A stretch of 64,000 nucleotides of DNA from Yuukianura sp. NJ FZ-2021 (lineage: Eukaryota): positions 6,076,001-6,140,000 of the forward strand of contig CM102290.1 in the NCBI GenBank assembly GCA_046563655.1. Reading direction: 5' to 3'. A program made the position numbers and the translations under genes. Shown here one piece after another: positions 6,108-31,129 of this stretch. The notes under the pieces are model-generated. The model did no database searches and was not told the origin of the DNA. It saw only the letters and a list, made by a program, of their open reading frames with translations. The number at the start of each line of letters is the position of its first letter. Position 1 is the stretch's first letter.

Positions 6108-6225
6108 CCCCTGTTTTAGTTTTGAGTTTCATTTATTCTCGAAAATTTGGTTCCAAAAAAATTAAAAAATTATTCTTTTTAAGCAACAAATTGTTTCAAC
6201 AATAGGAAAACTTGGTATTTGGAAT

Positions 6226-6310: not shown

Positions 6311-6350
6311 GTGTTAAAAATTCATGCAAATTAAATACAGTTGAATGGAA

Positions 6351-6425
6351 CTCTATGACAACTTTTATTAGCAAACCCAAAATTCGTAATCTCTATGACA
6401 ACTTTTATTAGCAAACCCAAAATTC
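6351..6425. repeat. Two-copy 35-bp direct repeat (40-bp period) downstream of the helicase stop
   Basis: CTCTATGACAACTTTTATTAGCAAACCCAAAATTC at 6351 and at 6391. Confidence 0.9.
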
Positions 6426-6446
6426 ATAATGCTACCATAAAACTGT

Positions 6447-8372: not shown

Positions 8373-8374
8373 CT

Positions 8375-10364: not shown

Positions 10365-10544
10365 AGAGACAAAAAAAAGTTTTCAATAAATGTGTGGCTA
10401 TCAGCCGCTTTTTCTTCTTCAAGGTTTAAGATGCATTTTTTTTGCTCGTCGTCTACAGTATTTAAAGTCTGTAGTTTCTGCAGTGTTGCATTAGATCAGT
10501 TTTCGCTTTACAGTCTAAAAGTCTCAAAGGAAAAAAAAATAGAA

Positions 10545-10950
10545 ATGGGATCCATAGTTTCGCGTCCTTGTGACCACGAAGACTGGGACGGGTGCTCGTG
10601 CCCCCAGGAGGTCATCTATGATGACCAGAGGACTGGCGGGAACTGGCGGCGGCGCCTAACATTGGAGGCCTTTTTCCGCTACGATTGTTTACGTGCCGCT
10701 TGGCACCACTTCTGGGCAAGACGCCGCGAGATTCCAAACTACTATCTGAAGCCAGAGGAGCCGGGCGCAATGGAACATTTCCTGCACTACCGGAACATGC
10801 ACCGGATAGCGCAGATGGAGCTGATCGAGAAGAGTAAGTTAATAATTCAATAATTATCTAAACCGAAATTAATTTGGAATAATATTTTTTGTCTTTTCAG
10901 TTATATTCAATGCAAATGACGCAGATCTTCGACAGCGGAGACTTCTTTAA
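10545..10950 (+). CDS. Two-exon small protein with an N-myristoylation-like start (MGSIVS)
   Basis: ATG at 10545 downstream of TATTTAAA and TCAGTT. Intron 10834-10900, then an in-frame last exon IIFNANDADLRQRRLL*. Contains CDHEDWDGCSC. Confidence 0.65.
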
Positions 10951-11393
10951 CATCTTCCGACTTATAAACTTAGTCTCCGAAAAAAAAGGAATAAAAAAAT
11001 GAATTTTGAAAGGATTCTTGTATTTTCTTGTTTTGCATTTTTTTCGATTTGGCAGAGTAGTATGTGGAGTTCAGCGAACCGGAACCAACTGCATTTTGTT
11101 TTGTTTTTACGTTTTGAGCTTTATTAAAAATACAAAATTTAGGCAAAGAAAAAGAAAAGGTTGAATTTGAACAAAAAAGCAATTTTTTTTGAAAACTTTT
11201 GAAGTTTCTTTTGTTTTTTTCTCTTTTTTTTCTTGTCTTATTATTTTTTTTCAGTGGAACTTTCGTAAGAGTATTGAGCTTTTCGGGGTCAAGACAGTGG
11301 AACAAAGGCTAAAAAAATATACTGAATGAAGGGGAAGTGGAGAGTATTTCAAATACATTTTTTTTATTTCTCATCAAGTTTCAAATGTTTTCA

Positions 11394-12332
11394 TCAGATT
11401 TCAGACTGATCAGCCCCAAATTTCTTTTCATCGTTAATTTCATAAGTCTCATACACAGTATGTGGTCCACAATATCCTCCAGGGAAGCGGAATATTTCTG
11501 TCATTGTTAGGACTTCAGCGTGGGGTCCATCTTCACCCTCAACTGGCCACTTTGTATAATCCATAGAGTGCTTGTCTCGAATCACTAGGCATGTCGTACC
11601 TTTATCTTCATAGAGTTTGATTTTGGGTAGGTCGCTGACCCCCCCACCGCCCTGAAGAAAGAGTTGATACAGCTTCCCATTAAGTCTGGGAACCATTTCA
11701 AAATCCACCATGGCTGCAGTGCCGTGTTGTCCGATCCGGAGTAATTTGGAGACCTTTTGATCTTTGAGTAGTAAAGAACAGTCCAAACTGTCTTGATGAG
11801 TGATGCTTACTTCGTGTACTGTTTCCGCCTCATTTTTCTTATTTCCCAATTTCATTATTCTCTCCGCTAGATGCGTATTATACAGCGTAACTGTTCCGCG
11901 ATACCACCTTGGAGGGCAGGGAGGGTTTTGGGTCAGTGATCGGAGTTCAGTGCTTTGTCCATCTTCGGCGTATACAACATTCGTCCACTCCTTGACGTCC
12001 GTAATATCCTTCTGTTGAATCACAACGCGAACCAAACCGCGGTTGTCAGTAATTTTTATTTTCGGCAGTTCGTCGACTCGCCCACCACCATGAAGAAATA
12101 GCTTGAAAAGCTTCCCAATGAGTCTCGGAATCATTTCGAAATCCACAGTGACTGCTGTACCGTGTTGTTCGATCCGGAGTACTGTTGGAATTGGACGATA
12201 AGTTATTAGAGAGCAATCCAAAGTTTCCGGATGATTGATACACCATTTTGTCACTACTTAGTATTCCCCACTCGCCCTTTCAGGACAAGAGGTATATCTA
12301 AACCAAGTAGCTATCTTTGAGCTTTCTTCCAT
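11394..12332 (-). pseudogene. Orphan protein made of two tandem ~145-aa repeats, with an early nonsense codon
   Basis: LDCSL..LRIxQHGTA..VDFEMxPRLxGKL..LFLxGGGxVxxLPKIK occurs twice. An ATG at 12332 is in frame, but codon 25 is TAA. Confidence 0.65.
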
Positions 12333-12600
12333 TGTTTTACAAGTCTTTAGATTTTTGTGTCTGACTTGAGTTGTGAGTGAGCAAAATGAGGCTGAGCGCC
12401 AGAGAACACGGTCAATTTATACCCCGTTCTCTCGGTGTGAACGACTCATGGAAGGGAAGATGGAGCATTCGCCGTGGGGAGTCATTGACCTTTCCGCATT
12501 TTCTCAAAAACGTTTGTGCTCATTTTGATTGGGTATATAAAGCGGTAAAAACTTGGAAAGATGATTATTCCTTTTTTAGGCTCAGTGATTTCAAAATTGT

Positions 12601-13046
12601 GCACCTCTGGCGGGTAAAATTTCATAAATGTCAGTTTTTGAACTTTGACCTTAAGTTTCTCTTTGTACCTAGATTGCCCAAACAGACAGGAAAAGCCATT
12701 GGCTGAACTTTTGGACGAGCTTGCCGAAGTGGATCCTGTCATACTCCAACTTGGCAGGGCTGTGCTGAAACATAGCTGCTGGAACCGCTGGGATCACCGT
12801 GACTGCTACGTCTACGATGCAGAAATTAACAAAGACAAGACAATAAATGAACTGGCAGCGGATCACTCGGCCTATGTTCGGGAAGGAGACTTGGAAGAGT
12901 TCATGAAGGACATGAAGTGTCACTTGGTACTATCCGAACCGTGTATCTTGGGCTGTGGACGAACCGGATCACAGTGTTTTGAAAATCCGTGCTTCTTGGT
13001 AAAGTCAATGGACTGGGACGACGACGACGCTATGGATACCAACTGA
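12601..13046 (+). CDS. Orphan Cys/His protein, paralog of 5671-6107 (start unclear)
   Basis: Same APLA|DCPNRQEKPLA junction with an intron at the same position (~12614-12672). Contains KHSCWNRWDHRDCY and CILGCGRTGSQCFENPCFL. Confidence 0.7.
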
Positions 13047-13177
13047 CCCCTGACTCTTAAGCTTAAATAATTCTCAAAAATTCGGTCGTTTTTTAAATAA
13101 ATTTGGTAAAAAGTCACACTCAGCCGGCAGTCGCCGTCATACACTGTTTTGTATAATTTCTTCCGTAGGTTCTTAGC

Positions 13178-14343
13178 ATGTCTGAAAGACAAATAAAGTC
13201 AGCCTATTTGAATAAAAAAGCAGTTGGAAGCTTTTCTGGTTTTCCGTCATTCTTAAAGTCGTCAGGTTTTTTAGACAAAGAGAAGGTCAAGCAAGCTTTG
13301 TCCGGAGTTCCTGCATATTCTTTACACAGGCCGCAAAGAAAGCCAAGGACCAGGCCAGTATTAACGTTTTTTCCTTATATGACATTTGGAGTGGACCTTT
13401 TACAGTTGGACAAAAAGTCTGCCAAAAAAGAAAAGATTGGCTTCATTCTCATCTGCATGGACTTGTTTAGCCGCTTTGTGTGGACAGAGTTCTGTGTCAA
13501 CAAGACAGCACGGGTCGTTCTAGAAGCCATAAAGAAAGTTTTCAAAAAAGCTGGGGTAAATGTCTTCTTTTCTCTCTCATGTCCATTTAAAGTTTATCAT
13601 TTTTTTTCTCAGCATCTCCCGCATTTCTTGGCTTCTGATTTTGGCAAAGAATTCAAGAATAAAAGCCTTTTGAAATATTTGGAAGCCAATGACATTCACA
13701 GCTATTCCCCGAGAACTGCGAGAAAAGTTTCACAAGTAGAACGTGTAATTCAAACGTTAAGAAGAAACTTGACCCGGGCTCAATTTGCAAATCCAAAGTC
13801 TTCTATGAAAACTCTATGGCCGGACATTGTCTCAAATTACAATAAAACGGTGCATTCAACTCTGAAAATGACCCCCACAGAGGCTATTGACCCCAAAAAC
13901 AAAACCACGGTTTTTATAAACGTGTACGACAAACTGATAAATTCCAAACCCGAGAAGCCAAAATTCAAGGTATTGAGTTGATGCTAAACATTCACTTTGT
14001 CTCATTAAAACATAGTCTTTTTCTTCAGGTGGGTCAGCTCGTGAGGGTCGCTAGAAAGCGGCTAACTTTTGAAAAAGCTTCAACGTCACAATCGTACTCT
14101 ACGGAAGTCTTTAGGTAAAGAAGCATATTCGCCCTGTTTTGGAATGTATGCCAAGCGTTTCTTTTTTTTATAGGATTAGAAAGGCAATCAGCGCCGTGCC
14201 TCCCTTTTACTATCTTGAGACGCTAAAAAAGGAGGAGATTAAAGGTAATCGTTTTAGACGGATTTTGCCAGTTGACAAAGCCACATCCAATTCTTTTTTT
14301 AGGGAGTTTCTTAAACGAAGATCTGACCCCAGTGACCGCATAA
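13178..14343 (+). CDS. Polinton retroviral-like (rve, DDE) integrase, 5 exons
   Basis: GVDLL / SDFGKEF / VERVIQTL catalytic triad and YNKTVHSTLKMTP. Introns at 13556-13612, 13970-14028, 14115-14173 and 14245-14302 restore KFKVGQLVRV..FEK..EVFRI..YYL..IKGSFLNEDL, the typical Polinton integrase C-terminus. Confidence 0.93.
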
Positions 14344-14344
14344 A

Positions 14345-15445
14345 ATGTACCCGTTTTCGCGCTTCGTGACTCTAGGTTCTACTTCATTTCCCTCATTCTT
14401 CCCATCTAATAATACAAGTTCTTTTCGAAATAAGCTTTTGGACAATATTCCTTTGCACAAAAATCTCCCGCTAGAAGTTGCAGTGTGTAATTTGTGGTAC
14501 CCCGCAACGCCAGACACTGGAAAGTATACGATTTTTGGCCATGAACCCGACGACAATGTCGTTTCCGTGGTTCAGCGCTTTGAATCGAGCATGGAAGTGT
14601 TTCGAGCCAAAGGTGAAAGTTATATTGAAACAATGAACAAATGCAATACGAATTTTGCAATATTCAACAACAAGCTGACATTCCTATTGGAAGTAGAAGA
14701 AGGAAAGGACTTTTTAATATTTCGCAACAATGACACTGGCTACGACGTGAAGATTCCAGAAGTCTATGCGCGTGCTCTCGGATTTACAAAAAATGTGTTT
14801 GGCCAAGGTGAAACCGATGCCCCGTCGTCTCCAAGCCAAGCAGCGTTGGACGCAATTGACATTTCAGAGCCGCTAAAGTTTACTGTTTTTCGTGAAGTCA
14901 GTTCTACCGTAAAGGTCAATGAACCCAAGGTCAAGGCTGTCGAAGGCATAGTTAGTGAAATCAACGTTGCTTTGAAACAGTTGGGAATTACATTTTCCTA
15001 CGACGAAAGCAAGCTCAGCGTCAACGGTGTCTCCGGAAGAGGCTATAGGGTTCGTCTCTCGGAATTTCTAGAAAAAACTTTTGGCCTCAAAACTCCATGT
15101 TGGTTTAGCTACAGCAATACTTCATTCCCGACAATCGCCAACATTGACCTGGATATACATCACAACAATGTGATTGTGCTCTGCGATGCTGTTAAACCAC
15201 AGGAATTCAAATCCAAGGCAGTTCGGCACATGAGCATTTTACCAAGGCGAGATTTGAAAAAAGAGGAAGGAGCTAGAATTATACACGAAACCCCACGGCC
15301 ATTGCTGTATTTTCCTGTTGACATGGACCGGAAGGAAATTAATGAAATTGGAATCGATCTTGTTTTTGAAAATATGGAACCAATCCCTCAAGCTAACGAT
15401 TTATATTCTGCCGTCGTACTTCATTTTCAAAATAAAACTTTGTGA
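14345..15445 (+). CDS. Minor capsid protein (penton, PZ), intronless
   Basis: N-terminal FVTLxS..FPSNNTSSFRNKL..LEVAVCNLWYP and C-terminal VLCDAV..LYFPV..INEIGI..VVLHF match my recollection of Polinton pentons. The position between integrase and MCP fits. Confidence 0.82.
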   Translation: MYPFSRFVTLGSTSFPSFFPSNNTSSFRNKLLDNIPLHKNLPLEVAVCNLWYPATPDTGKYTIFGHEPDDNVVSVVQRFESSMEVFRAKGESYIETMNKCNTNFAIFNNKLTFLLEVEEGKDFLIFRNNDTGYDVKIPEVYARALGFTKNVFGQGETDAPSSPSQAALDAIDISEPLKFTVFREVSSTVKVNEPKVKAVEGIVSEINVALKQLGITFSYDESKLSVNGVSGRGYRVRLSEFLEKTFGLKTPCWFSYSNTSFPTIANIDLDIHHNNVIVLCDAVKPQEFKSKAVRHMSILPRRDLKKEEGARIIHETPRPLLYFPVDMDRKEINEIGIDLVFENMEPIPQANDLYSAVVLHFQNKTL

Positions 15446-15511
15446 AACCAATATAAATAATCTGCTCCATTAGTTAGTCGTCATTTGACTTTCGTCGGAT
15501 CCACAGGCCAC

Positions 15512-15868
15512 ATGCTTGAAGTTGTGTGTGAAGGTGAAAGTTGTAAGCTTTTAAAAAGAATGGACGGAGAAAAGACTCGTCAGGTTGGGTATGGGGCATT
15601 GACCTCGGTAGTTTTACCAAATTCAATTCTATTTCAGAGTGTGAAAAAGGCTAAAAAGGGTAAAAAGAACGGTGCTTCAGAAATGACAGGAGAAGGAAGA
15701 AAAAAATCCAAAGGTCGCAAAAAGACGGGAGCTGCTAAAAGAAAGGGAAAAGCACCACAAAAGAAAGTCTCCGCGGTGGAAACTTCTGCTTCTAAAAAGA
15801 AAACTCCTAAAAAGAAAAAGATGGGCTGTGGACCAACGAAACAAGCCAAGCCAAAATCGTTTAAATAG
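15512..15868 (+). CDS. Lys-rich basic protein, putative DNA-condensing core protein
   Basis: Very K-rich C-terminal half with xGxG motifs (QVGYG, MTGEG, KMGCG) resembling maturation-protease sites. It lies between penton and MCP. Confidence 0.6.
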   Translation: MLEVVCEGESCKLLKRMDGEKTRQVGYGALTSVVLPNSILFQSVKKAKKGKKNGASEMTGEGRKKSKGRKKTGAAKRKGKAPQKKVSAVETSASKKKTPKKKKMGCGPTKQAKPKSFK

Positions 15869-15929
15869 AAGAACCATTTACAAGATTCCTCAGTCTTCAG
15901 TCCAGCGTTAGTCGGTAGTCAGTCTCAAG

Positions 15930-17231
15930 ATGGCTTCAGTAAACACGCTTCCGGGTACAAAGCCCAATTACGTCTCCCAACTCGATCTATTTTCAGTTCC
16001 CCCGACTGACATTAGTGTGCAGCAAACAGAGTTCATCAAGATTATTCCAGTGAATACTGTAAAAGAAAATCCTCAAATCACATTCAACATTGGGCAGTTT
16101 CAATTTCCGCCAAACGTTTACTTGGATTTCTCATCTTCATACCTATACCTAAAATGTAAAGTTCTCACTGCAAGTGGAGAAACGCTTCCGGACACTGCCG
16201 ACGTTGCTATTAGCAACATGATGTTCTACACAATCTTTGACTCCTGCACGGTCACGGTAGGTGGCGTCCAAATGAGTGAGTACCCACAAAGTTACAGTTA
16301 CAGAGGAATTCTGTCGCATCTCCTGGGCTACAGTCAAGAACTCAAAGCGAGCCTCCTGTCATCAATTGCCTACTACCCAGATTCCAAACAGGATGTCTTT
16401 GACGCAACAAACACTGGATATACGAAACGAAAAGCAATGTGTGCCGGGTCAAAGACCTTTGATTTGTTTGGAAAAATTTCATGTTCATTGTGTGAACTCC
16501 AACGATGGATTCCTTCGGGACTAAAAATTGAACTTACACTGACTAAAAACTCCGCCCCTTTCTGCTTGGACACGCCCACCGACACAAAGTATACGTATTC
16601 CATTGAAGATGCCGTCTTTCATCTCAAGGCACATACAATTAGCCCTCGAATCTACTCTAACCATCAGCAACTATTCAACCATGGAAAAAAAGCAATCTAC
16701 AGTTACCGAGAAATTGAAATTGAAAGAAACACAATCGCTTCCGGAACTGTCAGCTTCACCTCGGATCGACTTTTTCTTCGCAGGATGCCTACGATTGTTG
16801 CAATTGCCTTGGTTAAATCAAAAGCGTTTCGAGGAAACTACAAGAATAGCGCACAGAATTTTGCCGACTTTGGTACAACTTCAATCAGCGTCAGGACCGA
16901 AGAATTTGTTCCATTTTACAGAGAACTTGTCTGTAATTACGCTGCAAACCTGTACATGGAACCATTCGTGGCTCTATTTGATACACTCGGTTCTTTTGGA
17001 AACGGAATTTCCCGCGAGAATTTCAAACTTGGCAACGCCGTCTACCTTTTCCAACTTTCTGAAGCTGCAGTTTCCAACAATGACCTCCTTCCTGCTCGCG
17101 AAGGACCAGTCCGTGTAACTGCAGTCTTTGCTGAAGCCCTGAACGAGCCAGTCGAGTTGATTGTGCTGGGAACTTTTCAAAACGTTTTAACAATTGACAA
17201 AAACAGAAACGCACAAGTTCTTAAAACTTGA
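15930..17231 (+). CDS. Major capsid protein (double jelly-roll, PY), intact and intronless
   Basis: 433 aa with SQLDLFSVPPTDISV, YLDFSSSYLYLKCKV, YSYRGIL..LLGYS, WIPSGLKIELTL and AFRGNYKNSAQNF, which are Polinton MCP motifs. Confidence 0.93.
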   Translation: MASVNTLPGTKPNYVSQLDLFSVPPTDISVQQTEFIKIIPVNTVKENPQITFNIGQFQFPPNVYLDFSSSYLYLKCKVLTASGETLPDTADVAISNMMFYTIFDSCTVTVGGVQMSEYPQSYSYRGILSHLLGYSQELKASLLSSIAYYPDSKQDVFDATNTGYTKRKAMCAGSKTFDLFGKISCSLCELQRWIPSGLKIELTLTKNSAPFCLDTPTDTKYTYSIEDAVFHLKAHTISPRIYSNHQQLFNHGKKAIYSYREIEIERNTIASGTVSFTSDRLFLRRMPTIVAIALVKSKAFRGNYKNSAQNFADFGTTSISVRTEEFVPFYRELVCNYAANLYMEPFVALFDTLGSFGNGISRENFKLGNAVYLFQLSEAAVSNNDLLPAREGPVRVTAVFAEALNEPVELIVLGTFQNVLTIDKNRNAQVLKT

Positions 17232-17233
17232 GG

Positions 17234-17818
17234 ATGAACGGAGCGGAACTGGAGGAAGCGATGGCGTGTATAAAAGAGTGCTCTGACCCGAAAATTCGAA
17301 CTTTTGTTAGTTCTAATGATGGAATTAGCCTTCTAAACCCACGCCCTCCATTCTGTTGTATACAAAATACCGGCTTAACTTCTTCTCCAGGTAAATGCTT
17401 GAGGTAAAAAAATATGGAAACGCAAGAGATTTATTTTTTGTTTTAATTTAGGAATCCATTGGGTTCTCTGGGCGCACTTGGAGCAAGGCCGGTTGGTTTT
17501 TTTGACAGTTTTGGGAAATTGCCTAGCGATTACAACCTATCTCTTCCTTACGGCCCATGCACTACAATCTCGGAATGGAACACTAAAAAACTACAAAAGG
17601 ATGACAGTGCAACGTGCGGCATGTTCTGCTTAAAAGTCTTTCAAGAGTTGAGCAGCGGAAAAGATTTGTGTAGTTCTTTACGTATATTTAGTCCTAAAAA
17701 TTTAAACAAAAACGAAAAAATTGTACATGATTTTTATAACAGTTTAGGCATCTGTACGAATAGGGGTCACTCAGGGTCATCCCAGGCATGCTTTTCTTAT
17801 TGCGATTGGTTAAAATAA
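17234..17818 (+). CDS. Adenain-like cysteine maturation protease, 2 exons, one frameshift in a T run
   Basis: QNT..SSPG, then intron 17391-17451, then IHWV; FFDSFG; LQ....TCG. The HW and FDSFG frames join if the T7 run at 17497-17503 is T8 (mutation or sequencing error). Confidence 0.87.
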
Positions 17819-17913
17819 TTTTTTTACGGTAAATAAAATATAAATTCCTACAATTTCTCGACGATTGTTTCAGTATTCATTTCACTCATTTTGAGTCAAC
17901 AAGTAGTGTAAAA

Positions 17914-18449
17914 ATGGCTCTCTGTAGTTTCCTCGTGTTGTGTTTACTAATCTCAGCGTCATCAGGCAAGTAACCAATTTCCTTCTCCAAGGTCATTTTT
18001 TGTGATTCTTTTCTTTTTGGAAGCAGGAGAGCAAAAAACTCTCCAAGAACGCTGTAGGAACTGCATCTCTGGCGGTCATGTATTTATCAAAGGATGGCAT
18101 TTCAATTCGATTCAAAACTTTTTTTTGCACAAATGACTTGACCCGGAACCTCCCGGGAACACTCATAATGGGCGCAACTAATGTCACGGCCAATTGCGAT
18201 TCGCACAAGCAAGATACGGATGGAATCGTGTATGGAACGTTGTTTGCTGATAATATCAGCAATGGGACGGCGCTAAAAGACATTTCGAATTTATTGAGAG
18301 CAATGACCGGCTGCAAGAAGCAACAAAAATACGAACCCGCCTCCCAACTTCCAGTATTACAAGCTATTCTGGGTATGACGCTACACCTTATAGTTTGGTC
18401 GCCTATATACATTAATTGTTTTATTCATCCACAGCCTTGTCCTGCGTGA
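17914..18449 (+). CDS. Possible secreted or membrane glycoprotein (gene model uncertain)
   Basis: Signal-like first exon MALCSFLVLCLLISASS and a probable intron ~17966-18026. The downstream ORF has NVT, NIS and NGT sequons and a hydrophobic C-terminus. Joining them needs a frameshift at the T8 run near 18119. Confidence 0.4.
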
Positions 18450-18648
18450 CTTTTGCCGCCGCCGTCGCAAACGTCTTGGGGTGGAGTTTGGGAGGTCAGT
18501 GCCATGGTAGCCAATCCCGCGGGACATTCGGCAGCGTATTTAACGTCGCCCTCCGTCGATCCCCCCGTCAGTCCGAAGTTTGAGCTTGGGAATAGCTTTA
18601 GCAAACTTTTCAGTTTAGTTTTTAAAACAGTACTAGTGTTTGAATAAA

Positions 18649-20465
18649 ATGAGTTTTCCAAATAAACGGGCAGCTGAGGTAAAAAAATATTCTAAGTCAT
18701 CTTAGTATTGTTGTTTCACAAAAAATTTTATTTGTAGTTTAGTTGCGGTTATCAAAGTGCTACGTTGCACTGCACTTTCAAATGCACGACCTACAAGGCC
18801 ATGGCTATCCATGTGGAAACTGTAAGACATTACTTTTAGTACAGGCATGCGGAAAGATGTGAAACTTTCACTTTTGATGCAGGTACATAGCTGTAATTCT
18901 TGTGGAGGGTACTTTGATGAGGCTAGTCTTCACCGTCCAATCTGTCCTCAGAGAGGCATGGGCCGTACAGCGAACAATGACCTCGCTACTGCGGACATTC
19001 GTCCTTTCAAAGAAATCCGGCATGCTCTAAAGGGGACTTTGAAGTTGTTTTCTGCACCCGTTGAGCCACCCACCGAATGTCAAGTACTCTCGGTTTTTGA
19101 AAACCTCGACTTTCCCATCAGGAAGCTGCTGAAGTCAGTGATTGGGCAGTTCAGCGGAGTCAAAGTCAACTTTACTTTAATTGCTGACATGATTGAGGTC
19201 ACACACAATGTCATTCACCTCGGAGACGCCATCGGAGCACCCTTCATGCCCTCTCTCATCCAGACTTCATTTCAAGGGTGGTTACAAACTCTTGTGTATA
19301 CATCATCAACGCCCTCAACTTATACCTAGAAAACGGAAGCAATTGGCAGATTCTGCGGCTACGTTCTCTCCACATTGGTATTGGTCAGTGGAATCCAGTT
19401 GTTCGGGGGCGGGGCTACATTCCGATTCCAAAGGAATTGGCTCGCAGGCGCGGACTGCTGTCGATAAATACCAATTCCAACTGCTTTCAATTGAGCGTAC
19501 TATGTGCACTATACGAAGATGAAATTTTGGAGTTGGGAACAATGAAGCGTCACTGTCTTGGGCTCAAGGATCACCAAAAGTCAAAAGTTGAGAGAGCAAT
19601 TTTGGAAAAAACAGCAAGTTATGAAGCCTTCTTGGAGAGAATGGATTTGAGCTTTCTCCCGCACCCTGACGTTTCTCTTTTGGACATTGACTTGGTAGAA
19701 GAGAAATTCTCAGACCTTAGCATCACCGTGTATGGAAACCAGGGGCCAGAAATTGTTCTATGTAGGGCACCTCAAACTGAGAGGGCAAATCACGTCAATC
19801 TCCTACTAATCAAGCACCCAGAGCGAGAAGAACATCACTATGTTTGCATTAGGGACATTTCGGCACTCCTCGGAAAAAATGGCCACCATAAGCATCAGTT
19901 TTGTCCCGTGTGTCAAAAACGTTTTGACTCGAGGCCTTGGTCCTCCGTAAACCATACTTGTGGTGAAAACTCTGTAAAAGTAAAAGTTCCTACGAATGAT
20001 ATTGTGAAATTTCGAAAGTTTGATGCCCTCCTGAAAGCTCCTTACATTTTCTTCTACAAATTTTTCTACATCTCTGTTCAAACTCCGATGACCATTGGAC
20101 AAGAATGTATCAGTGTCACAGAAAAGGTTCCAATTGGCTTCAGTCTACTGAGTGTATGTGAAACAGGCCACGTAGACCGCCACTCTTACATTGGAAAAGA
20201 TTGTGTGGATGTTTTCTTTAAAACTGCAATGGAAATGGCGAAAATGAAGCTAGACGAAATTAAATTTACAAACAACATGCTCCCCATGACCGAGGAACAA
20301 GAAAGGCTTTTTCTAAAGGCAACAAATTGTGAAATTTGTGGAAAGCAATTCAACGACGATTCCGTGCTTAAGGCTTACCACCATAACCATTTCACATTTA
20401 ATAAATCTGTTATTAAGTGGGCTTGCTACTGGCCATTGCAGCCTATATGGTCACTCGTATCGTGA
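18649..20465 (+). pseudogene. Protein-primed DNA polymerase B, N-terminal part only (Zn finger, terminal-protein region, vOTU-like, start of EndoVII-like)
   Basis: Introns at 18679-18737 and 18822-18882. Motifs NGSNW..WNPVVRGRGYIPIPKEL..INTNSNCFQLSVL..VNLLLI..HYVCI and CEICGKQF..YHHNHFT. Frameshift near 19270. Similarity stops at ~20400, and no polymerase core follows. Confidence 0.85.
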
Positions 20466-20611
20466 GGCGCCGTCGACGACCAAGGCCCCTTAGTGACCAA
20501 CTCCAGAGGGGCGAAGCTGCTCTTCAAATGCAGGCTTTCACTACACATGAAAGCTCACTTTAGGACTTGACCAACATACAGAAATTAGAGTCCAAATTTC
20601 CCATAAGTCAC

Positions 20612-20716
20612 TGTGAGGTGCAACTTGCACCTCACACAAAAACCAAGTTGATGTACTCTGTAGTAGTCTTTAAAATTCTCCCATAAGCTTCTGTGAGGTG
20701 CAACTTGCACCTCACA
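20612..20716. repeat. Two copies of the 25-bp palindrome TGTGAGGTGCAA-C-TTGCACCTCACA, 80 bp apart
   Basis: Copies at 20612-20636 and 20692-20716, each preceded by TCCCATAAG. Confidence 0.92.
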
Positions 20717-21306
20717 CAACTCCACATCTCCTTCTCATTCCATCATTCTCTTTCACCTGAGTTTATTTTTTACTATTTTAGCTCACCCAATTCCCTTCCC
20801 TTTGCCGTAAAAATGGTTTTACTTCTTTTATTTTACAACAATTTTACAACTTTTTGTCATAGAAAACCTCAGAATAATAAATAAAATTAATTACAAAATT
20901 TCACAAGCTGGTAAAGAGTGCATTAAGTTATTTGTAGTGCTTGCAGTATAAGTCAAGGCACAAAATTATAAGCGAACAGCACATTTACCGGGATTTTTTA
21001 TGAGTTTTTTTTTTCTTCGACGACGATGTCTTGATTTTTCCAAAAACAACAGAACCTAATGTTTTTATCAATGATTTGTTTTGGTTTGTTTTTTTTTGTC
21101 AACAACAACTATGGAAATGTTTTTCAATGGTTGACAAACAAAAAAAATGAAAAGAAACGGAGAGAAAGAAGTCATCCGTTCTTTGAAAAATCCAACTCAA
21201 GCGCCATCTCAATTCTTTTTGTTGAAATCTCAAAACAAACAAAATGTAAACTCAACTTGCACGTATGAAGTTCACAGCCCACTTTTTTTTTAAAACTTTC
21301 AGCACT

Positions 21307-21394
21307 GCCATTGTGGTTAGTTGGTGTAGAGATACAGTCAACAAGATAGAGAGAGGAAAAGACGCGAGTTCGAATCTCGGATTATTTTTTTTTT
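21307..21394 (+). ncRNA. Candidate Pol III (A-box/B-box) tRNA-like small RNA
   Basis: TGGTTAGTTGG (21314-21324), a T-arm hairpin CGAG-TTCGAAT-CTCG (21365-21379) and a T10 run (21385-21394). Confidence 0.45.
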
Positions 21395-21600
21395 GTATAA
21401 CACATTTAAAATTAAATTTAATTTAAATGTTAACTACAAATAATATTTAACTAAATTAAACAAATTATTCTTTATTAATTTATTTATTTATTTTTTTAAT
21501 ACCTTGTAAATTTCTGTTTCACACCACCACATGCCTCCCAAGGGTAAATAATTCTGAGCGGGGTGAACGGACAGGGGCTGGGGGGTGTGGGGAGGGGGGC

Positions 21601-21638
21601 TTGACCTACTTTCTAATAATGGACATTCACTACTAACT
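21601..21638 (-). repeat. Right terminal inverted repeat of Polinton B
   Basis: Reverse complement of 5135-5172, followed by the TSD TTTAAA at 21639-21644. Confidence 0.95.
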
Positions 21639-22519
21639 TTTAAACCTTTCAATAAATAATTGATACGTTTTTCGTCTTTCATAATCGTCCCCTGACTCTT
21701 GTCCAGTTGGTCGCACAAGCGCATTATCTTGCTACAATATTCCTCGATAGGAACATTCTTCTCACGTCGCATCTGAGCGAGTTTATGTTCAAGTTCGTCT
21801 TCAGTGAGACGCGACTTGAAAGCTATCCTAAAAGTCTCCTCTATCTTTGTCCATGTCAATGGCAACACTTTGCCATCGGCGTCAATATTTGCCGGATCTC
21901 TTTTCCATTCTGTGCAACAGTTTAACCACCAAGTCTTAGCATACTTGGTTAGGTAAAGTGGAAAATGGACGACCTTAGCAGCGTCGTCCCAATGCTGCGT
22001 AGCTGCAACAGCTTTAAAAGTTTGCATAAAATTGGTAGCATGGGTCCCTCTCTTTCCTTCAAACATGGGGTCCCCTGGTGGAGTCCAAACGGAAACAAAG
22101 ACGTTTCCAGTGCCTCCTGGTATAGCTAAGGCCATTGGACCCGGACCACTCCCTCCTGGAGTTCCTGTGCTAGTATTGCCTGTTTCCGACATTACGCTTC
22201 TGTTTGCACCAGATAAATCTAGGTGTAAGTCTCTGCGAAAACTTTCTGTTTTCCTCTCCGGAAGTTGGAAGTGACTAAGACGGCTTGATCCGTTGATTTC
22301 AGTTGTTTTAGTGGTCTGCCGTCTCGTCCGTGTCACACCTTCGTCCTTCGTAGCAGAGATTACTTCTCCAACCACTACCTCGGATAGAATCCTTGTTGCT
22401 CCTTCCTCTTGATTCTTATGCGATTTCAATTTAGATCGATTGTCCTTCAATACTGTGTCGAACGCAAAGAACGAAAATTCTGGTGTCCTTCGATCTTTCC
22501 TTTCTCTAACGGGAATCAC
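21639..22519 (-). pseudogene. gag: Ty3/Gypsy-like gag (capsid), N-terminal part
   Basis: PMFEG...FMQTF..VA...WDDAAKV..FPLYLTKYAKTWW...TW......FRIAF...IEEYCSKIMRLC...INYLLKGL fits a retrotransposon capsid. The predicted ORF tail VSSECP... is read-through into the Polinton TIR. Confidence 0.9.
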
Positions 22520-22634
22520 CAGTACTCATGCCCTAACCTAGGCGTAGTACCTGAATAAAGTAATACATCGACTTCACAAATGTGGGTCGATAGGTTAATC
22601 TTGGAAATCCAACACATGGATTTGAATTAATTTC

Positions 22635-23996
22635 TTAATTGGATGAATTCCAATTTGCAATCTGTGCAATCAATAAAATCATAACACTGAAAATTGCCCA
22701 TGTGGGTGACCCTATCTCGGCTGCCCCGGCAGTCGGGTCACTGTCGTCAGACTCACAATCAATGTTTAGGAACTCTGCTAACCGACAATATCGTTGAAGT
22801 CGTAAGTTCCAATCATAGTCTATAATATAGCCATATTCTAACGAAGAAAACCCTAGGAGGTTTTCGTTAACGATAACAATGGGTGCACGAACTTTGCTCA
22901 ATCGTGCTGGATAGTCGACTTTATCCCTAAGAAACAATTTCCCCTGAGAGTGGTGGTAACCTAGCCAAGTGCCATTGACTTGTAAATACAAGTTCCTTCT
23001 TTGCGTGATTACTCCAGTAATCGGAAGTGAAATTCCTAATTTTCTGATTTCTAATGGGTACCCTTTTTCTAATATGTTGGAAGTAGAGTACTTCCAGTAT
23101 CGTGTATTTGCAAAAATGTAAACAAACCCATCGAACAAAAAGATTCTGTCGATTTGGATAGTTTCTGGAAAATGTTGGTAATATTGATGGTTGATGATGA
23201 ATTTAGGATAGTTAAATTTACTCTTCTCTACTTGGTAATGCCCGTAGTCTGGGAATAGAAAGTAGACGTTGTTCAATTGGTATGCATGGTTGATGCGATC
23301 GGTGCATACTGCCTTGCTTAGTCGGCTTTGTACTTCCTTGCCTTCGGCATCGTTTTTAATTAGAAGGTGGGGTTGGTTGTAGAGTTTGTCAAGAGCTTGT
23401 CTATCTACCATGTTTAATTTTAGTTTAGGGTCCCTTACTTTGTACCAAGGGTACATGATCGAACTATTCTCTGAGGTATGTACAAGGCCGAGAAAATGAC
23501 CTACCTCGTGCAAAAGAACTGTATATAGATTAATTCCAGTTGTATTGAATCCTGTTACCCATTTTTATGATGCATCTAAATGCACATCGCCTCCTAGTCC
23601 TACACTAGGGTAAAATGCATGGCCTATAATACCCCCCTCGGCGTCAAATGGTTTTGAGTCGTTATGATCAAGTTTTGCAAATTTAATTTGAATCTCTGCG
23701 GTCGAGTCACCTGGCTTGTTTTTAAAAGTAAAATTGGAAACCTCGTTCCATCTAAGTAATGCTAACTTAATATCAGAGATAGCATCTAATTCCTCAACAT
23801 CCAAGGGTACATCCTGTAGGGTCCATCCTAACTGGAACGTGGACCACATCCTTGGGTTTAATACGTGACGCTTAGTCCTCAAAGTGTCTGCAGGATCTTC
23901 TTCCCAGCAGCGGATGGCACCGTCTTCCTCCCTGGTGAGTACGGATGCTTCGGCCATCAGTATCAGCGTCATCACAAATAAAAAGTATGGAGTCAT
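22635..23996 (-). pseudogene. Intronless matrix metalloproteinase (M10A) with hemopexin-like domain and GPI/TM tail; one in-frame stop
   Basis: Signal peptide, IRCWEED (cysteine-switch-like), furin site RTKR, HNDSKPFD.EGGIIGHAFYP..GGDVHLD, HEVGHFLGLVH, Met-turn SIMYPWY, hemopexin-like YIFANTRYWKY..GYPLEI and a hydrophobic C-terminus. The two ORFs share one frame, separated only by TAA at 23565-23567 (DAS*KW, where E is expected). Confidence 0.93.
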
Positions 23997-26626
23997 GTCG
24001 TCGCTCCTATCTCCTTCTCCTGGAAGGGTTTGTATGGAGTTAATACTCCTTCTTCAATCCATGAAGAAATGGAACCTGCTTAGCTCTAGATTCCTAGCAC
24101 CCCTAGCAAGATCTCTCGTAGTAGGCTCGGTTCCCTCTCAGTCCAAACTCTCAGAGGTAAAGATGCTCCCTTCCATGAGCATGGGGTGTTTGTGTCGAAA
24201 CCTTCGACGTCATCAGTATGAAATTGCCTATCAGTGCCTATCAGACTGGCGAGGTCTGGGCATGGTGCTCCATGGACTGAGATTCTTACCAAAATTTTAA
24301 AGAAAAAGTTGAGCCGTTTCTAGAGGGACTATGGTACCTTAGTCCCTTCGCACCAGTATTCGTTTTAGGAACATCTACGGAGACTTGACCTATCCTCTTC
24401 TACCTATGCTGAGCTCGTTGGTCCAGGTGGAACCTTCACCACCTCGGAGCTCATCGTGGTATCCTGTCTTCAGAATTTCAGCTATTGTCCTACCTAATTA
24501 CAAACTTCTGCTGGTCATGACTCCAGCGTCCATAAATGTTCGGATTGTCCAACCGATAAGAGCAGCTATGGGGCATTCTCGCCACAAACCATAGCCCCGG
24601 TCAAAGCATACACCAGTTGCTAAGGGCCTACCTCATGACCCCGACTTGTCCCTACAGACGGGATCGACCAAGTCCTTACATGGACTCGGACCTCCAGCTG
24701 TCTTTCTTGAACAGTACTCATATTCACAGGGTCTACCCTTCCCCGTGAAGAAGTCAATCTTAAATTATTGCTATTTCTTTACAAGAGCTTCTCCTTGCTT
24801 CTTGAAAAGCTTTTAAACTTCGGTTCAGATTTTAGTTACTTTAATCAAGTTGGAAATCCCGTCCAACAACTCTATTTTCTCTATCTTCCAGTCTTTGGGT
24901 TAAATAAATGAGAATGAGATCAAGTGTCAAACTCTTAGGTCAATAGGTCGATAGGGCCTTCACATAGGTCAGCAGGGGCCGTTAATAAACGTTACGTTAT
25001 ATTTTCTGAAAAGAGTGCTTGCAGCTTTGATCAAATTCGTTAATGTTTTTAGAATTCTCCAGGGCGTTTTTCTAAGTTTAATTGATTTGGATAAATTTAA
25101 CGTAAATTATTTTGCATTAGTGTTTCCGTTAAAGTTTTGATTGATTTCTACTTTTATTTTTGAAAAATGAGTGAAATAGGAAATGAAACTTTTTGGTTTT
25201 ATAAAAAAAAATGAGTAACATAAAATGAGTCGAAATGAGAATCGGGCAACAGATCGTTATTGCTTTGGTAAGAATTAGTAACAGAGTTAAAAGTTCAAAA
25301 GTTCAATTGAAAATATGCGAACATACCCCTTAGCACTCTACTTTGAATTTAGGACCTAATACCCTCATACACTCTACTTATGAGATTTTCAAAAATTTGA
25401 AAAATTTGAATTTTCGCGCCATTTCAACTGGATGGATTTTCTGTTAAAAATGTGTCCTACATATTATCCTGACCTTTGTGACCTACCTACTGACCTTTTC
25501 TAGAAGCCTTAAGGGCTGTACAGGAGGATCTCAGTAGAACCTCCATTGAAACGGGGTGAATCTTCGAATCCCTAAAACATTTAGAAAAACCTTTGCTCTA
25601 ATGAAAACTACTGGTAATTCTCTGAAAATTACCAATAGCCGAGGCCCCCGGGCCTCTGCGGGTCTAACACCCGCTCACCCCTCGTGACCTTTTGACCCTC
25701 CCGGGCCCTTAAGACTATCTGGACTGATTTTGAGATAAAGAATAGGATGGAACCTAGCCTACCTAATCTACCTGTTTTCCCCCTGACTACTACTCATTAA
25801 CCCCAGGTGGGGCCTGGTCCCACCAGTCCCACCACTAGTCCTAACTGCCCAAGATTTTGTCTAAATGAAATAAGTCCAAACCTAGCTCCCTTAAACAATA
25901 GAGTAATTGTTTCAATTACCTCTTCAGCTACAGGCGGACTCTTAGCAGTCAATCGGAGTTCAGCAAGAGCGCAGCAAACAGCAGAGAGTTGGATTTTTAG
26001 AGTTTATTTCCCCAAATAAAGAAAGTTCTTCCCAACAGAGCTTGAAGAAAAGCTAATTTGAAAATGACTTCTAAAAGCTTGAAAGAAAAGCTAACCTAAG
26101 ACTGACTTTCAGAGTCTCTAGCAAGAAACCTAATTTAAGATTGACTTAATTTTAACAGAGTTCCTACTACTATTTATAACCTAGTTCTTGACCCACGCTA
26201 TCCTCAAGGTTTGACCACCCTTGGCAACACCCTTGGGACTCAAGTCCGTGATCAGACGTTAATGACCAGGATTTATGATCCAATTCAGTCATTAATGTCT
26301 GGTATCAGACAAAGTTGCGATCGTATGCAAATTGACATCTCGTCAATTTGAATTAAAATCACTCGCTTTACTTGTGACATTACATGTCCAACAAGTGTAA
26401 AAACTTGTTGGAAGTAAAACTGCTGCGTCGGCCCTCTTCTGATCTGTCAGAGCAAAGATCAAATATCATAAGTCTTTGCAACTTTGTTGAGAAAGCGGGT
26501 TTTGCCAATTTGCATACATGCTCCCTTTTTCACTCTTATCTCTAATTACTCATAATTAGTAACTCATCCAGATTTTAACTTGTCCCGAAATACGAATTTC
26601 GGGAGAAGTCAAAATCCGTCGTTACA

Positions 26627-28881
26627 GACCGACCAAGACCTGAAATGGTAGACTTAAAAGGCAATGAAACTTCATACCTTCCATTGTTTAGGAGGAAATG
26701 ACTGGAGAAATGAGCCTCTGCGTCTTTCTCTTCAGTAGTCCAACTCCTATGTTGTGGAACTTGCTCAAGTTCCCAAAATTTTTGTAGTATGTCCTTACAG
26801 CCGACAGTAGCCGAATGGACCTGAACACTGACGGTTGAACACGAGACTTTGCCCCCACAGGACCAGGTCCAGAACAGGACCGGAAAAAATCCAACCAAGT
26901 GGACTGGAGCGTGCCACTGGTTGACACCGTTTCCCTGTCACACGTTGGTCCAGAAAAATGTGTTCCGCCACATCAGCACCTAAAAGAATGTCCACTTCCC
27001 TTGGCTCAAAAAATTTGGGATCTGCCCAGCCCCCTGCAAATGGCGCCCATAGCAACCAACGCAATTTTTTGTTTGTGACGTCACCAGCTGAAAAATACCG
27101 TAATCGTGAAATTGGAACCCGCTGGCATTTATGTAAACAAGATGTGTCTTACGGGTTTCTATTGGACATCACCAATAAGTGGCAGAATTCCGGTATTTTC
27201 AGCGGGTGACGTCATTTTTTTTTTCCACATGGCAACCAAACAAACTTTCCATTCGCACTACCTAGTAGTATTCTATTTACCTTGGGATCTGCCAACGTCA
27301 AGTTCTGCAGAAAGTCCCAGGACTTAAAATTTGAGCCAACTGGAAAAGATGGAAGATCACCTGTGACTTCAGAAAGGATTAAGGCACAAACATTGATTTC
27401 AAATTCATTGACACATGAGCGCAACTTGAACTCCACAGTTCCTTTGGCCTTACACATACCATTTGCGCCAATTCCATTAATCGCGACAACACACGTACGC
27501 CTGCGCATACCCAATTTACTTACGCACTTGTCCGTGATGAAACTCGCTTCAGATCCGTTGTCCAAAAAAATGCGACATTTTTGCAAAGATCCACTTGAGT
27601 CCTCCACATTGACCATTGCAGTGGACAGAAGCACTCCTCCGCCACTGACAAAGTTGGAAGACACAACTGCCTTCGATGCTGGCTCTGGGACTTGTCGGTC
27701 ATTCTCCCTGTGAATGAACCACACTTACGACATGTCCCCTTCCAGCCACACTTGTCAATGTGATGACCCCTAGACAAACAATTGAAACAAACATTTGACT
27801 TTTTCAAAAGCGTTATTTTGTCACCCCTCTTCAAATCCGCAAATTTAGGACAACGAAATAACGGATGAGACTCTTCGGGACAGATCGGACACTTCCACTG
27901 CTCCCTAGTCTTCACGAAATGAGCACTTTTTTCCTCAAAGTGCTTCTTGACCTTGTCCGTGGGTTTGTCTTTTCCTGAAAATGCAACCAAACTCCTTATG
28001 TAATTTTCCAGGAACTCTTCCAGTTCCTTTAGAGTTGGCATGGCAGTGCCCGTAAGTGACTTGGCCCACTCCAATGGAGTATCCAAGTCCAACTTGTTGA
28101 CTAAATTGACGGCGAGAAGGTCATCCCAATCAGTAACCTTCCGTTCCATTACTTCCAGCATCCGCATGATCTGAAAAAAAGAATCTAGAAATTGGAGTAA
28201 ATTAACTGCCACATTATCACAATTGACCTTTGGCAGGGCATACAATTTTCTAATCAGTGAGAAAATGATTTCGCGTTCATTGTCGTAACGCTTTACCAAC
28301 AATTCCCAGGCTGGAGTAAAGTTCTGCACTGAAATCGAAAAATGATTAACCAGTATCTCCGCCTCGACCTTGAGACACGACTTGAGGTACTGCAGCTTGT
28401 CACTTCCAGAAAGTGACGTATTGGCGATGATCAGTGACTGGAACTGGTCACGGAAGCTGATCCATTCCTCGAATGAACCACTGAAACTAGGTAACTCAAG
28501 TTTAGGCAATTTAGCATTCATTTTCGGGTTACCATTGACACTACTAGCAGAACTCGTCCCAGCTACCTCACTTACGACAGGCGTAGTGACCTTCTTGTCA
28601 GTGATTCCCTGACGTATGAGAAACTGACAGTTCTGAATTAGCATGTCCACTTGTAACCCTGCCTCTATTTGGACGTTGACCTCGTCTGGCTCTGTGACGA
28701 TGGAGAACATCGACTCCTGAATACTGTCCAATTTCGTTTGGCATTTGTCCACTCCATCAAGTAGAACCTGCAATTCTACTAAAGAATAATCAATCGATTT
28801 AGACTTTAAATCACCTTCAACCAGTTGAAGTTTGGACTTGAGCGCAGTCCGCATCGACACCATCTTCATTAAATCCGCCAT
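26627..28881 (-). pseudogene. gag: BEL/Pao gag and aspartic protease region (frameshifted, one 255-bp insertion)
   Basis: KLPKLELPSFSG..WISFRDQF..KLQYLKSCL; Zn knuckles CPIC..HPLFRC and CFNCL..GH..C..C..C; protease FLDNGSEASFI; LADP.F..P..VDILLGAD; LQKFWELE; GRYEVSLPFK. Confidence 0.94.
27027..27281. mobile_element. 255-bp non-coding insertion flanked by a 12-bp direct repeat
   Basis: TTGGGATCTGCC at 27015-27026 and 27282-27293. Removing the insert restores LADPKFFEP. It contains an internal ~25-bp inverted repeat. Confidence 0.8.
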
Positions 28882-28923: not shown

Positions 28924-29304
28924 TGAAATGATTTGAGCGCTGGTTCTGATTGGGTCCGAAAATGATTTAACTTTTACTAGTTTATTTACCTAATTAATCG
29001 ACTTACAGTTATACTTGAGTGGAAAGGAAAATTCTATCTTTAGATTGTGGTATGAAACCAAAAGAGACGCAGCAAAGACTTATGAATGAATGAATACTAC
29101 TAAAAGACAAAAAGTACACACAACTTTTTTCCCCCTAAGAACTAATGTAAAAGTGTATTGTTGTTGTTCGGGCTTGAGTCGGAGGCCAGTTCGGAAGCAT
29201 TCGATGATGCTATTTTAAATCAGAAAGAAAAAACCGCTTCCTCACTGGCATCATCTCAACCTGACACAACGGTATCAGAATGAAACTATCAATTCACCCA
29301 AACA
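28924..29304 (-). repeat. BEL/Pao 5' LTR (381 bp)
   Basis: Direct repeat of 460-830 with TG..CA ends, followed by the TSD TACAG. Confidence 0.96.
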
Positions 29305-29309
29305 TACAG

Positions 29310-30304
29310 TGTTCCATATATCTCAATCAAGTTTTAATTACTCCTGCGAGTTTACAGTATGCCTACAGAGCATACTTGGAAACTTTACTCGGATATGGAA
29401 AAAAATACAAACGCTCTCAAAGTCAATGCTCACTTTTCTACGAGGACAAGGATCCTAAATGTACAGATGAAACAAAAGAAGATGGATTTAAACAAAGATA
29501 CACATTTGCAGTCAAAAGCAAAACAATTGAAATGGTTGGACGCCCGTTTACTCACCTTTATGTAAAAAAAAATTTCTCGTTCCTTCAATCGACTTACGCA
29601 TTTCATTTTTAAGATCCACACCAGAGTTTTGTCTCGTTGCCAAAACAGCTGGTAACTACCAAGTTCAAATTCAAGATGCTCGCCTCATTGTACAACGCCA
29701 TCAACTCCTTCCCTCATTACTAACTTCAATTCTCAAAACTTGGTAGCATGGAAGGCCAGCAACTTACCCAATGAAACGAGTTGAAATTAAAACATATACT
29801 CTATCCCCTGGCACAGTTACCAACGTCAACGAAAATCTCATTTCTGGTGTCATATGTGATCGACTACTAATTGGACTTTTACCATCAGAAAACTACATTG
29901 GATCTATAACCACAAATCTATTCGCATTTGAACACTTTGATTTGAGCTGCATAAATGCTAAGCATTAATGGTGACTTGGGACACATGTACACTTTACGCA
30001 AGATCAATATGTTCAACTCTACCACAATCTATTTTGTAGTCTCGGAATTGCCAACGATGACGTTGGACTAGATTTGAACCGTGAAGAATTCAAATCTCAT
30101 CCGCTAATGCTATATAATCTCAGACATTCAAAAGAAGGTTTTCCTACTCCCAAATATGGCAACGTCAAGATTGATCTAAAATTTAAAGCTGCACTCAAAA
30201 GCTCTGTCACCGTCCTTGTCTACGCCGAACAATCCGTCCTACACATTGATTCCTCAAAATCAGTATACTTTAGTGACTACAGTCTTGCCAGCCTTCAACA
30301 ATGA
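29310..30304 (+). pseudogene. Polinton A major capsid protein, remainder (frameshifts and stop)
   Basis: CSIYLNQ..YAYRAYLETLLGYG..SLFYED..GFKQR; YPMKRVEIKTY..LLIGL..YIGS..NLFAFEHF; GNVKIDLKF..VTVLVYAE. Confidence 0.9.
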
Positions 30305-30820
30305 ATACACAACAAATTTACTCGTATCTGGCGAAAATTGTTGGCAAACATCCTTCCGCTTTTGATGTAATTCCAATTGATCATTTGAATACTATGGAAA
30401 TTTTCACCCATCCTTTTCTACTTGTCGTCAACAGTGCTCCTTCTCATCATCCAGGACAACATTGGCTAGCCCTGTTTAGAGAAAATTCAAAATCTCCACT
30501 AACATTTGTAGATTCCTATGGACTTGGTGTAGAAATTTATGTTGTAGCTCTGCAAAATTTTGCCAACGTTTAAACACAACCATAATCGCAAATACAAAGC
30601 AACTTCAAAGTATAAATTCTACAGTTTGTGGTGAGTATGCAATTTACTTTCTGTTTAAACTTTTGCATTCCTGCTGTTTAATGTCAATCTACTGTAACTT
30701 TACATCAAATACTATCAGAAATGATAGACTAGTAAAGCGGTTTGTCAGAAAACCGCTACGCCAAATAATAAAAACTATGCCCTACTATGGCCCAACTCAA
30801 TGTTGCACCCCACATACTAA
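30301..30820 (+). pseudogene. Polinton A adenain-like protease, intronless, frameshifted
   Basis: MNTQQI..VVNSAPSHHPGQHWLAL..FVDSYG, then after a frameshift near 30570 NTKQLQSINSTVCGEYAIYFL. Confidence 0.88.
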
Positions 30821-31129
30821 ATAAGAACCGTAGCTTTGTCCAAATCACACCAGACGGCGCGGCAATAAATGTTGGTTAATTTCCGCATCACCCGCCCCTC
30901 AAAGATGACCAACTTTCCCTTGCGTTTAAAGTAAACCCAACTGTAGGGCCTTCCTTGAAACATCGAGTCCCGATGAAAAACTTCCAACTTTTTGTCATCG
31001 TCCACATAATTCAACACCTCACGATCCACGCCGTCATATACGACCGCTTCATCTCCTAATACACACACACAAAAAATCACTTTCCCCTTCGTTTCTATTG
31101 TAGTAAAAAAAATTACGTTTCTTGTCCAT
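30817..31129 (-). pseudogene. Small hypothetical gene convergent with the protease
   Basis: 87-aa ORF, with an upstream ATG (MDKKRNFFYY) in another frame and a TATAAAA upstream near 31204-31210. Confidence 0.35.

Follow-up and report, generated by a model that had tools for sequence, protein, structure and literature searches.

A predicted membrane-type matrix metalloproteinase gene upstream of a Ty3/gypsy-like gag, inside a Yuukianura BEL/Pao element and in a metagenome contig

In a stretch of 64,000 nucleotides (nt) from the genome of Yuukianura sp. NJ FZ-2021 (assembly GCA_046563655.1, contig CM102290.1, positions 6,076,001 to 6,140,000; hereafter the window, whose own numbering is used throughout), an intronless matrix metalloproteinase (MMP) gene lies on the minus strand in front of a Ty3/gypsy-like gag, and both are enclosed by a BEL/Pao retrotransposon. 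The locus raises the question of whether the MMP is a gene that a retroelement lineage carries with it or one that came to lie beside gag by accident. We think it probable that MMP-gag-pol is the inherited gene order of a Ty3/gypsy-like lineage, that the window holds a defective member of this lineage, and that the MMP is an element-borne accessory gene and not a host gene.

A shared gene order in the window and a metagenome contig

The capsid part of the window gag was compared with longer proteins, and only one of 214 candidates passed an E value of 0.001. This sole relative, P0279 (610 amino acids [aa], 54% identity), is encoded on L001, a metagenome contig of 4,435 nt. L001 carries an MMP frame of 431 codons that is open at its 5' end (2-1297; Pfam M10, E 2.9e-47), followed after 69 nt by gag (1367-3199; Retrotrans_gag PF03732, E 3e-10, and Ty3_capsid, E 6.8e-05), which is overlapped by a pol in the -1 frame that is open at its 3' end (3133-4434) and contains an LIDTGA motif and a match to the protease-reverse transcriptase (RT) fingers of foamy virus (7kse, E 2e-08). 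The order is MMP-gag-pol in a single orientation, and all three frames are open. A zinc knuckle, C-x2-C-x3-H-x4-C, was recognized by eye in L001 gag; the standard-spacing pattern did not match it. An earlier note on this DNA had proposed a retroelement family with an MMP located upstream of gag, and would have given the idea up if full-length members of this gag family lacked the MMP; the one gag relative that could be retrieved (1/1) carries it, in the proposed position. Around the junction of the two L001 genes, the hexamer AATAAA overlaps the MMP stop codon (1295-1303), with the ATG of gag 69 nt further on. Gag is preceded by a pyrimidine-rich stretch (...TTTTCTAATAG), and both features may be signals for polyadenylation or splicing that bear on the expression of MMP and gag.

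The L001 MMP is also the closest relative of the window MMP (E 4e-83; 36% identity across 371 residues, 6 gaps), and the two proteins remain co-linear across both domains as far as the last cysteine. The L001 protein has a furin-type candidate site of its own, RKRR, and a C-terminal anchor of 22 residues, and its nearest protein-atlas clusters are MMP-14 (0.92) and MMP-16 (0.89). In a tree of 54 matrixins, made up of these two and 52 others, the window and L001 MMPs grouped as a single clade with a long stem (SH-aLRT 99). The gag genes correspond along their length as well. Residues 284-437 of L001 gag match window positions 22096-21635 at 55%, and residues 440-472 match 5118-5020 (E 4e-04). 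Since L001 gag maps to both parts, the window gag is a single gene, interrupted by a 16.5-kb element that is bounded by terminal inverted repeats (TIRs) and is described below.

The window MMP runs from an ATG at 23996 to a stop codon at 22637-22635 on the minus strand (453 codons plus stop). Its catalytic domain is matched by Peptidase_M10 (Pfam PF00413, E 4.3e-41; MEROPS M10A), and one hemopexin repeat scores above the Pfam cut-off (E 3.4e-05; 24.1 bits versus 21.3). The best match in the PDB is human MMP-1 (E 8e-31), with an alignment that extends from the pro-region into the hemopexin blades. The N-terminus is hydrophobic and signal-like, a furin-type RTKR lies at residue 40, the zinc-binding motif HEVGHFLGLVH begins at residue 163, the Met-turn methionine is M181, and a second hydrophobic segment (residues 432-449) ends four residues before the C-terminus. 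This is the set of features that the earlier note had listed for the protein, and each was recovered. In a 36-row matrixin alignment, H163, E164, H167, H173 and M181 all fall in invariant columns, and C231 aligns with the first hemopexin cysteine, in a column that is nearly invariant. R29-C30 align with the nearly invariant R-C columns of the cysteine switch, but the pro-region is only about 25 residues long and has no PG_binding_1 match. These features show a real, nearly whole matrixin, which is predicted to be of the membrane type and to enter the secretory pathway.

The same note had called this MMP full-length and intronless. Its identity as a matrixin and its lack of introns hold, as a single tblastn segment spans 369 residues of the L001 homologue. 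It is not intact: an in-frame TAA at 23567-23565 interrupts the catalytic domain and separates the open frames 24053-23565 and 23564-22635. The alignment column at this position is filled in the aligned relatives, and the L001 MMP reads through it.

In the window and in L001, MMP and gag stand in the same order and orientation, although gag has diverged to 54% identity and the MMP to 36%, and we therefore conclude that the adjacency of MMP and gag is not due to chance. Nor is the MMP a resident host gene, since the whole unit lies inside a BEL element bounded by a target-site duplication (TSD). These two points bear directly on the possibility that the adjacency is an accident of nesting, in which a processed pseudogene of an MMP inserted into a host locus or into the leader of some unrelated gypsy fragment. 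Such an origin would suit a region that is a stack of nested elements beside a satellite, and the MMP does have a nonsense codon. Against it stand, besides the conserved order and the enclosing BEL element, the fact that inspection of the sequence showed neither a poly(A) tract nor a duplication flanking the MMP, and the lack of a close cellular relative among 1.84 billion representatives. We regard an accidental juxtaposition as highly improbable.

The HMMER search of those representatives returned 5738 matches to the window MMP, and the best 150 of them were only 27-43% identical to it. The top-scoring matches among those listed were tandem-MMP gene models of fish, firefly, springtail and plants. 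When 28 of the best 150 of the 5738 matches were scanned with Pfam, none had a gag or RT domain. A word-index search with the window MMP gave a single weak match of bacterial type. No relatives of the window MMP were found in metagenome contigs or IMG/VR, and an alignment of the two MMPs found none in IMG/VR either.

Boundaries and structure of the window unit

The enclosing BEL/Pao element occupies 460-29305 on the minus strand and contains both the MMP-gag unit and the 16.5-kb TIR element. Its long terminal repeats (LTRs; 460-831 and 28924-29305) are identical at 365 of 372 positions, and the TSD, TACAG, is present at 455-459 and 29306-29310. The BEL gag lies at 28881-27520 (gag and protease together, 28881-27212), and pol is split into 27724-26626 and 4463-1277, with RT, Peptidase_A17, integrase and DUF5641 domains in 4436-1277 (Pfam). 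The element therefore has what defines a BEL/Pao member: an LTR pair, a TSD, a gag with DUF1759 and a pol with RT, Peptidase_A17, integrase and DUF5641. That everything described above sits inside a TSD-bounded BEL element, as the earlier note had stated, is borne out.

Two database BEL polyproteins, P0162 and P0163 (53% and 52% identical), align with the window up to 26626 and again from 4436, and the nine residues between their two alignment blocks correspond exactly to window positions 4463-4437. Because BEL pol homology ends at 26626 and continues at 4463, the sequence from 26626 to 4464 is an insert in BEL pol. There is no duplicated flank around this insert, and the residue count of the BEL pol equals that of P0162 and P0163. 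One BEL contig from a public sequencing run (X3, see below) crosses 26626 without the insert and continues with the expected BEL residues, as read from its letters. The MMP-gag unit is a single clean insertion into a young BEL element.

The unit consists of 26626-21639 plus 5128-4464, or approximately 5.65 kb, and comprises 2.5 kb free of coding signal, then the MMP, a gag reduced to its capsid part and a tail of 0.54 kb, all on the minus strand. The 5' non-coding part (24054-26626), a candidate LTR plus leader, begins with TGTAACG at 26626 and has a hairpin with an 8-bp stem at 26616-26571, about 10 nt inside the terminus. It has no open reading frame (ORF) of at least 60 aa with a Pfam match, and the frames obtained by reading through stops were likewise empty. 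Between the MMP stop and the first gag ATG (at 22192) is a spacer (22193-22634). The gag frame is open from 22525, 110 nt past the MMP stop, and its first ATG comes 443 nt past that stop; the earlier note's placement of a Gypsy-like gag on the same strand about 115 bp downstream agrees with this and with the Retrotrans_gag match in the first part of gag (21639-22192; PF03732, E 1.3e-09). The second part of gag (5002-5128), in which the frame continues at 5128, contains the end of the capsid and then a stop codon at 5004-5002. The non-coding tail (4464-5001), after which BEL pol resumes at 4463, gave no Pfam match in read-through frames and matched neither L001 pol nor the 5' part of the unit.

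Further copies were sought in four public DNA runs from two organisms, of which X1, X2 and X4 derive from one sample of organism A and X3 from organism B. The runs contain 10-42% of the unit's words; all four consist of contigs, and depth was not used to rank parts of the unit. A site inside the MMP (23672) is covered by 7, 2, 1 and 3 distinct contigs in X1, X2, X3 and X4, respectively. X3 record 18 (950 nt) spans 22709-23658 at 95% identity, and X4 record 24 bridges 23800-24756, which includes the MMP start and 760 nt upstream, and is about 92% alike. Length variants between copies, with skips of 42-363 nt, are frequent at 25400-26250 in the 5' non-coding region (X1, X2 and X4). Past the other side of the MMP, X3 record 17 covers gag and extends 568 nt beyond 21669 into sequence unlike the TIR element, which fits a copy lacking the 16.5-kb insertion. 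Among the contigs listed, none from X3 covers the MMP-gag spacer, and this result is uninformative.

Six X4 contigs stop at 26626 and then continue into flanks that are unlike one another, and 26626 is therefore the true terminus of a repeated element; it is the genuine 5' end of that element. The earlier note had described a TG-initiated, LTR-like region that interrupts BEL pol. The edge at 26626, with its TGTAACG, stands. Since the unit has no second LTR, TIR or TSD, the description of these upstream 2.5 kb as "LTR-like" is unproven. Candidate CA/TGG and TTACA boundary sites were no better than chance. Rfam and tRNA scans gave no matches.

With one end of the repeated element fixed at 26626, the MMP could be placed inside the LTR itself, which would then extend from 26626 to just before gag, in the manner of the superantigen gene of mouse mammary tumor virus (MMTV). 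The position of the terminus would be as expected on this account, as would our failure to place an LTR 3' boundary or a primer-binding site (PBS) upstream of the MMP, the TGG-initiated stretch at 22522 between MMP and gag, and the L001 AATAAA that overlaps the MMP stop 69 nt before gag. The TGG stretch was matched to no tRNA, however, the window being without a tRNA gene for comparison, and the window contains neither a second, 3' MMP nor a 3' LTR copy of any kind. A 4.1-kb coding LTR would moreover be unusual, and L001 is too short to tell. We consider an LTR-borne MMP quite unlikely, and prefer an accessory gene situated between the 5' end of the element and gag.

The far end of the unit admits another account, in which the unit is some other non-autonomous mobile unit, or a segment that repair or template switching copied into BEL, so that only its ancestry is gypsy-like and it no longer moves as LTR elements do. 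Around the 5.65-kb insert BEL pol is exactly continuous, although the insert lacks paired LTRs, TIRs, a TSD, pol and a nucleocapsid; one end of the insert recurs in at least six other contexts in X4. These observations are what a non-autonomous unit would give; however, one authentic and one arbitrary end also fit a failed integration of LTR-element cDNA. In addition, L001 has the same genes in a normal gag-pol context, and the window unit bears no signature of another class of element: Helitron-type ends and a poly(A) tail were not seen by eye, and no ribozyme was found in the Rfam scan. We judge this alternative unlikely.

The reading of the unit as a member of an MMP-bearing Ty3/gypsy-like lineage has a number of points against it, which we set out together. 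L001 is the only relative outside the window, and it ends within the MMP on one side and after the start of RT on the other, so it spans no LTR, RNase H-integrase or env region. Among the contigs listed from the sequencing runs, none joins MMP and gag in another genomic copy. In the window unit itself, gag stops after its capsid part, and no nucleocapsid zinc knuckle is present; no pol was found by Pfam scans of ORFs and read-through frames or by comparison with L001 pol. No direct repeat that would represent an LTR pair was detected between 26700-22500 and 5128-4300 at a word size of 7, nor in repeat scans of the window, and no TIRs link the 5' 2.5 kb and the tail. A TSD of 4-6 bp is likewise missing, and pattern scans found no recognizable PBS or polypurine tract, again with no tRNA gene in the window for comparison. 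On the protein side, the hemopexin assignment of the window MMP consists of one Pfam repeat and alignments, the window and L001 MMPs sit on long branches for which the tree tool flags a risk of long-branch artifacts, and any functional role is read from domain content.

Taken alone, the window copy does not have the structure that defines an LTR retrotransposon, and the earlier note's description of it as one was not upheld, as it has no LTR pair, TSD or pol. The copy is dead: its MMP has a nonsense codon, its gag is split and lacks the nucleocapsid, and pol and a 3' LTR are absent. One authentic terminus together with one arbitrary end and no TSD is what would be expected if a cDNA that was incomplete or already deleted had been inserted aberrantly or by one end only. 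We therefore place the case for a heritable MMP-gag-pol order on the comparison with L001, and treat the window copy as a damaged representative of that lineage.

The surrounding nested elements

Nested mobile elements are stacked across the region and adjoin a satellite. The insertion that splits gag (5135-21638, plus strand, 16.5 kb) is separate from the MMP element and interrupts gag at 21639/5128. Since gag is interrupted by it, this insertion is later than that of the MMP-gag unit. Its TIRs are approximately 0.4-0.5 kb long (about 5135-5521 versus 21104-21638, with inverted matches of 93 nt at 90% and 44 nt at 100%), and a 6-bp duplication, TTTAAA, flanks it at 5129-5134 and 21639-21644. 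Long TIRs and a 6-bp TSD are the ends that characterize Maverick/Polinton elements. A match to rve at 13169-13978 is weak and below the cut-off (Pfam, E 3.7e-04), and neither Pfam nor the PDB gave a polymerase or capsid match among its ORFs. In their motifs two of these ORFs look Maverick/Polinton-like, one resembling a capsid protein (15912-17228) and the other a polymerase (19197-20462), a likeness that Pfam and the PDB did not confirm. The polymerase-like frame breaks off at 20462. A PIF1-like helicase fragment inside the element (7714-9013, minus strand; Pfam E 1.2e-12), of which one piece was recognized at 7714-8163, could be the remnant of a Helitron or the helicase of the 16.5-kb element itself.

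The BEL element in turn lies inside another set of capsid-like and protease-like ORFs (29306-30821 on the plus strand, and 1-459) that resembles 15912-17228. Contigs of X1-X3 cross 29305 without BEL and continue with letters that match window 430-454, so an empty BEL site exists. Within the BEL pol region, a 267-bp stretch (27015-27281) is skipped by contigs of X1, X3 and X4, which join 27014 to 27282, and is itself covered by many contigs; it is probably a small high-copy insertion in this BEL copy, similar to a miniature inverted-repeat transposable element (MITE) or a short interspersed element (SINE). The remainder of the window, 35594-64000, is filled by about 50 tandem copies of a satellite whose unit is 564 bp long (544-568 bp in its variants), mostly 96-100% alike. 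The nested transposons abutting this satellite suggest heterochromatin.

Putative role of the MMP and comparison with known systems

A retroelement lineage seems to have kept a tissue-remodeling protease. The absence of introns and of a close cellular relative makes capture of an mRNA a plausible origin for the gene. As for its use, the domain order lends itself to a tentative scheme. Cells that express the element would display the membrane-anchored MMP on their surface, where furin would have activated it; the active protease might then cut extracellular matrix or surface proteins, so that particles could pass a tissue barrier such as the basal lamina. The MMP would act beside env or in its place. 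We offer these steps, which are drawn from predicted domains, as a possibility that is more likely wrong than right. More doubtful still is the broader proposition that this invertebrate gypsy-like lineage is an infectious, retrovirus-like agent that uses a furin-activated membrane matrixin, in place of env or together with it, as a factor for spread between tissues (soma to germline) or between hosts, by opening the basal lamina or shedding surface proteins, and that the gene was taken once from a cellular mRNA resembling those of membrane-type MMPs (MT-MMPs) and has since persisted through the divergence of gag to 54% identity.

LTR retroelements are known to acquire env and a few enzymes (dUTPase, esterase and exonuclease), and such an extra gene tells something of the element's lifestyle. 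A conserved membrane-type MMP in front of gag would add to these an accessory gene of a new kind, whose product works outside the cell. It would offer a concrete candidate answer to the question of how retroelements with no envelope, or a poor one, get past tissue barriers and into the germline or another host. For annotation it is a warning that an MMP gene in an invertebrate assembly, if divergent and intronless, may belong to a transposon as cargo and not to the host.

One of the closest known systems is that of Ty3/gypsy elements (Metaviridae) with extra ORFs, among them the env of errantiviruses, the ORF3 products of the bdelloid elements Vesta and Juno (a GDSL esterase, a DEDDy exonuclease and env-like proteins) and certain plant elements. 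Like these, the lineage described here has a gag with a Ty3-type capsid, followed in L001 by a -1-frame pol with an aspartic protease motif and RT, and it has one additional, family-specific ORF for a secretory or membrane protein. In contrast to theirs, the extra ORF encodes a matrixin and lies upstream of gag instead of downstream of pol, and the window copy is without LTRs, pol and TSD. The terms "metalloprote," "matrixin" and "MMP" do not occur in the main texts of two papers on extra ORFs (PMC5408684 and PMC13524379). In the part of the literature covered by our full-text search, we found no MMP-bearing retroelement.

The protein itself most resembles animal MT-MMPs of the MMP-14 and MMP-16 type, with which it shares an RxKR before the catalytic domain, HExxHxxGxxH, the Met-turn, a hemopexin-like domain with the first cysteine column and a C-terminal anchor. 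Unlike them, it is element-borne and intronless, has a pro-region of about 25 residues without a PG_binding_1 fold and a single Pfam hemopexin repeat, and is at most about 43% identical to cellular matrixins among the matches listed. In its placement it can be compared with the superantigen gene of MMTV, which lies inside the LTR: both are accessory genes outside the gag-pol-env block and near the 5' or 3' repeat, whereas the encoded proteins differ.

Among virus-like agents with an MMP of their own, the counterparts are insect DNA viruses. Granuloviruses and entomopoxviruses encode secreted MMPs that are thought to attack the basal lamina; to our knowledge, these enzymes lack a hemopexin domain and a membrane anchor, and the viruses that carry them are large DNA viruses. 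If our reading of the MMP-gag-pol order is true, a gypsy-like retroelement lineage would parallel these viruses as a case of convergent capture.

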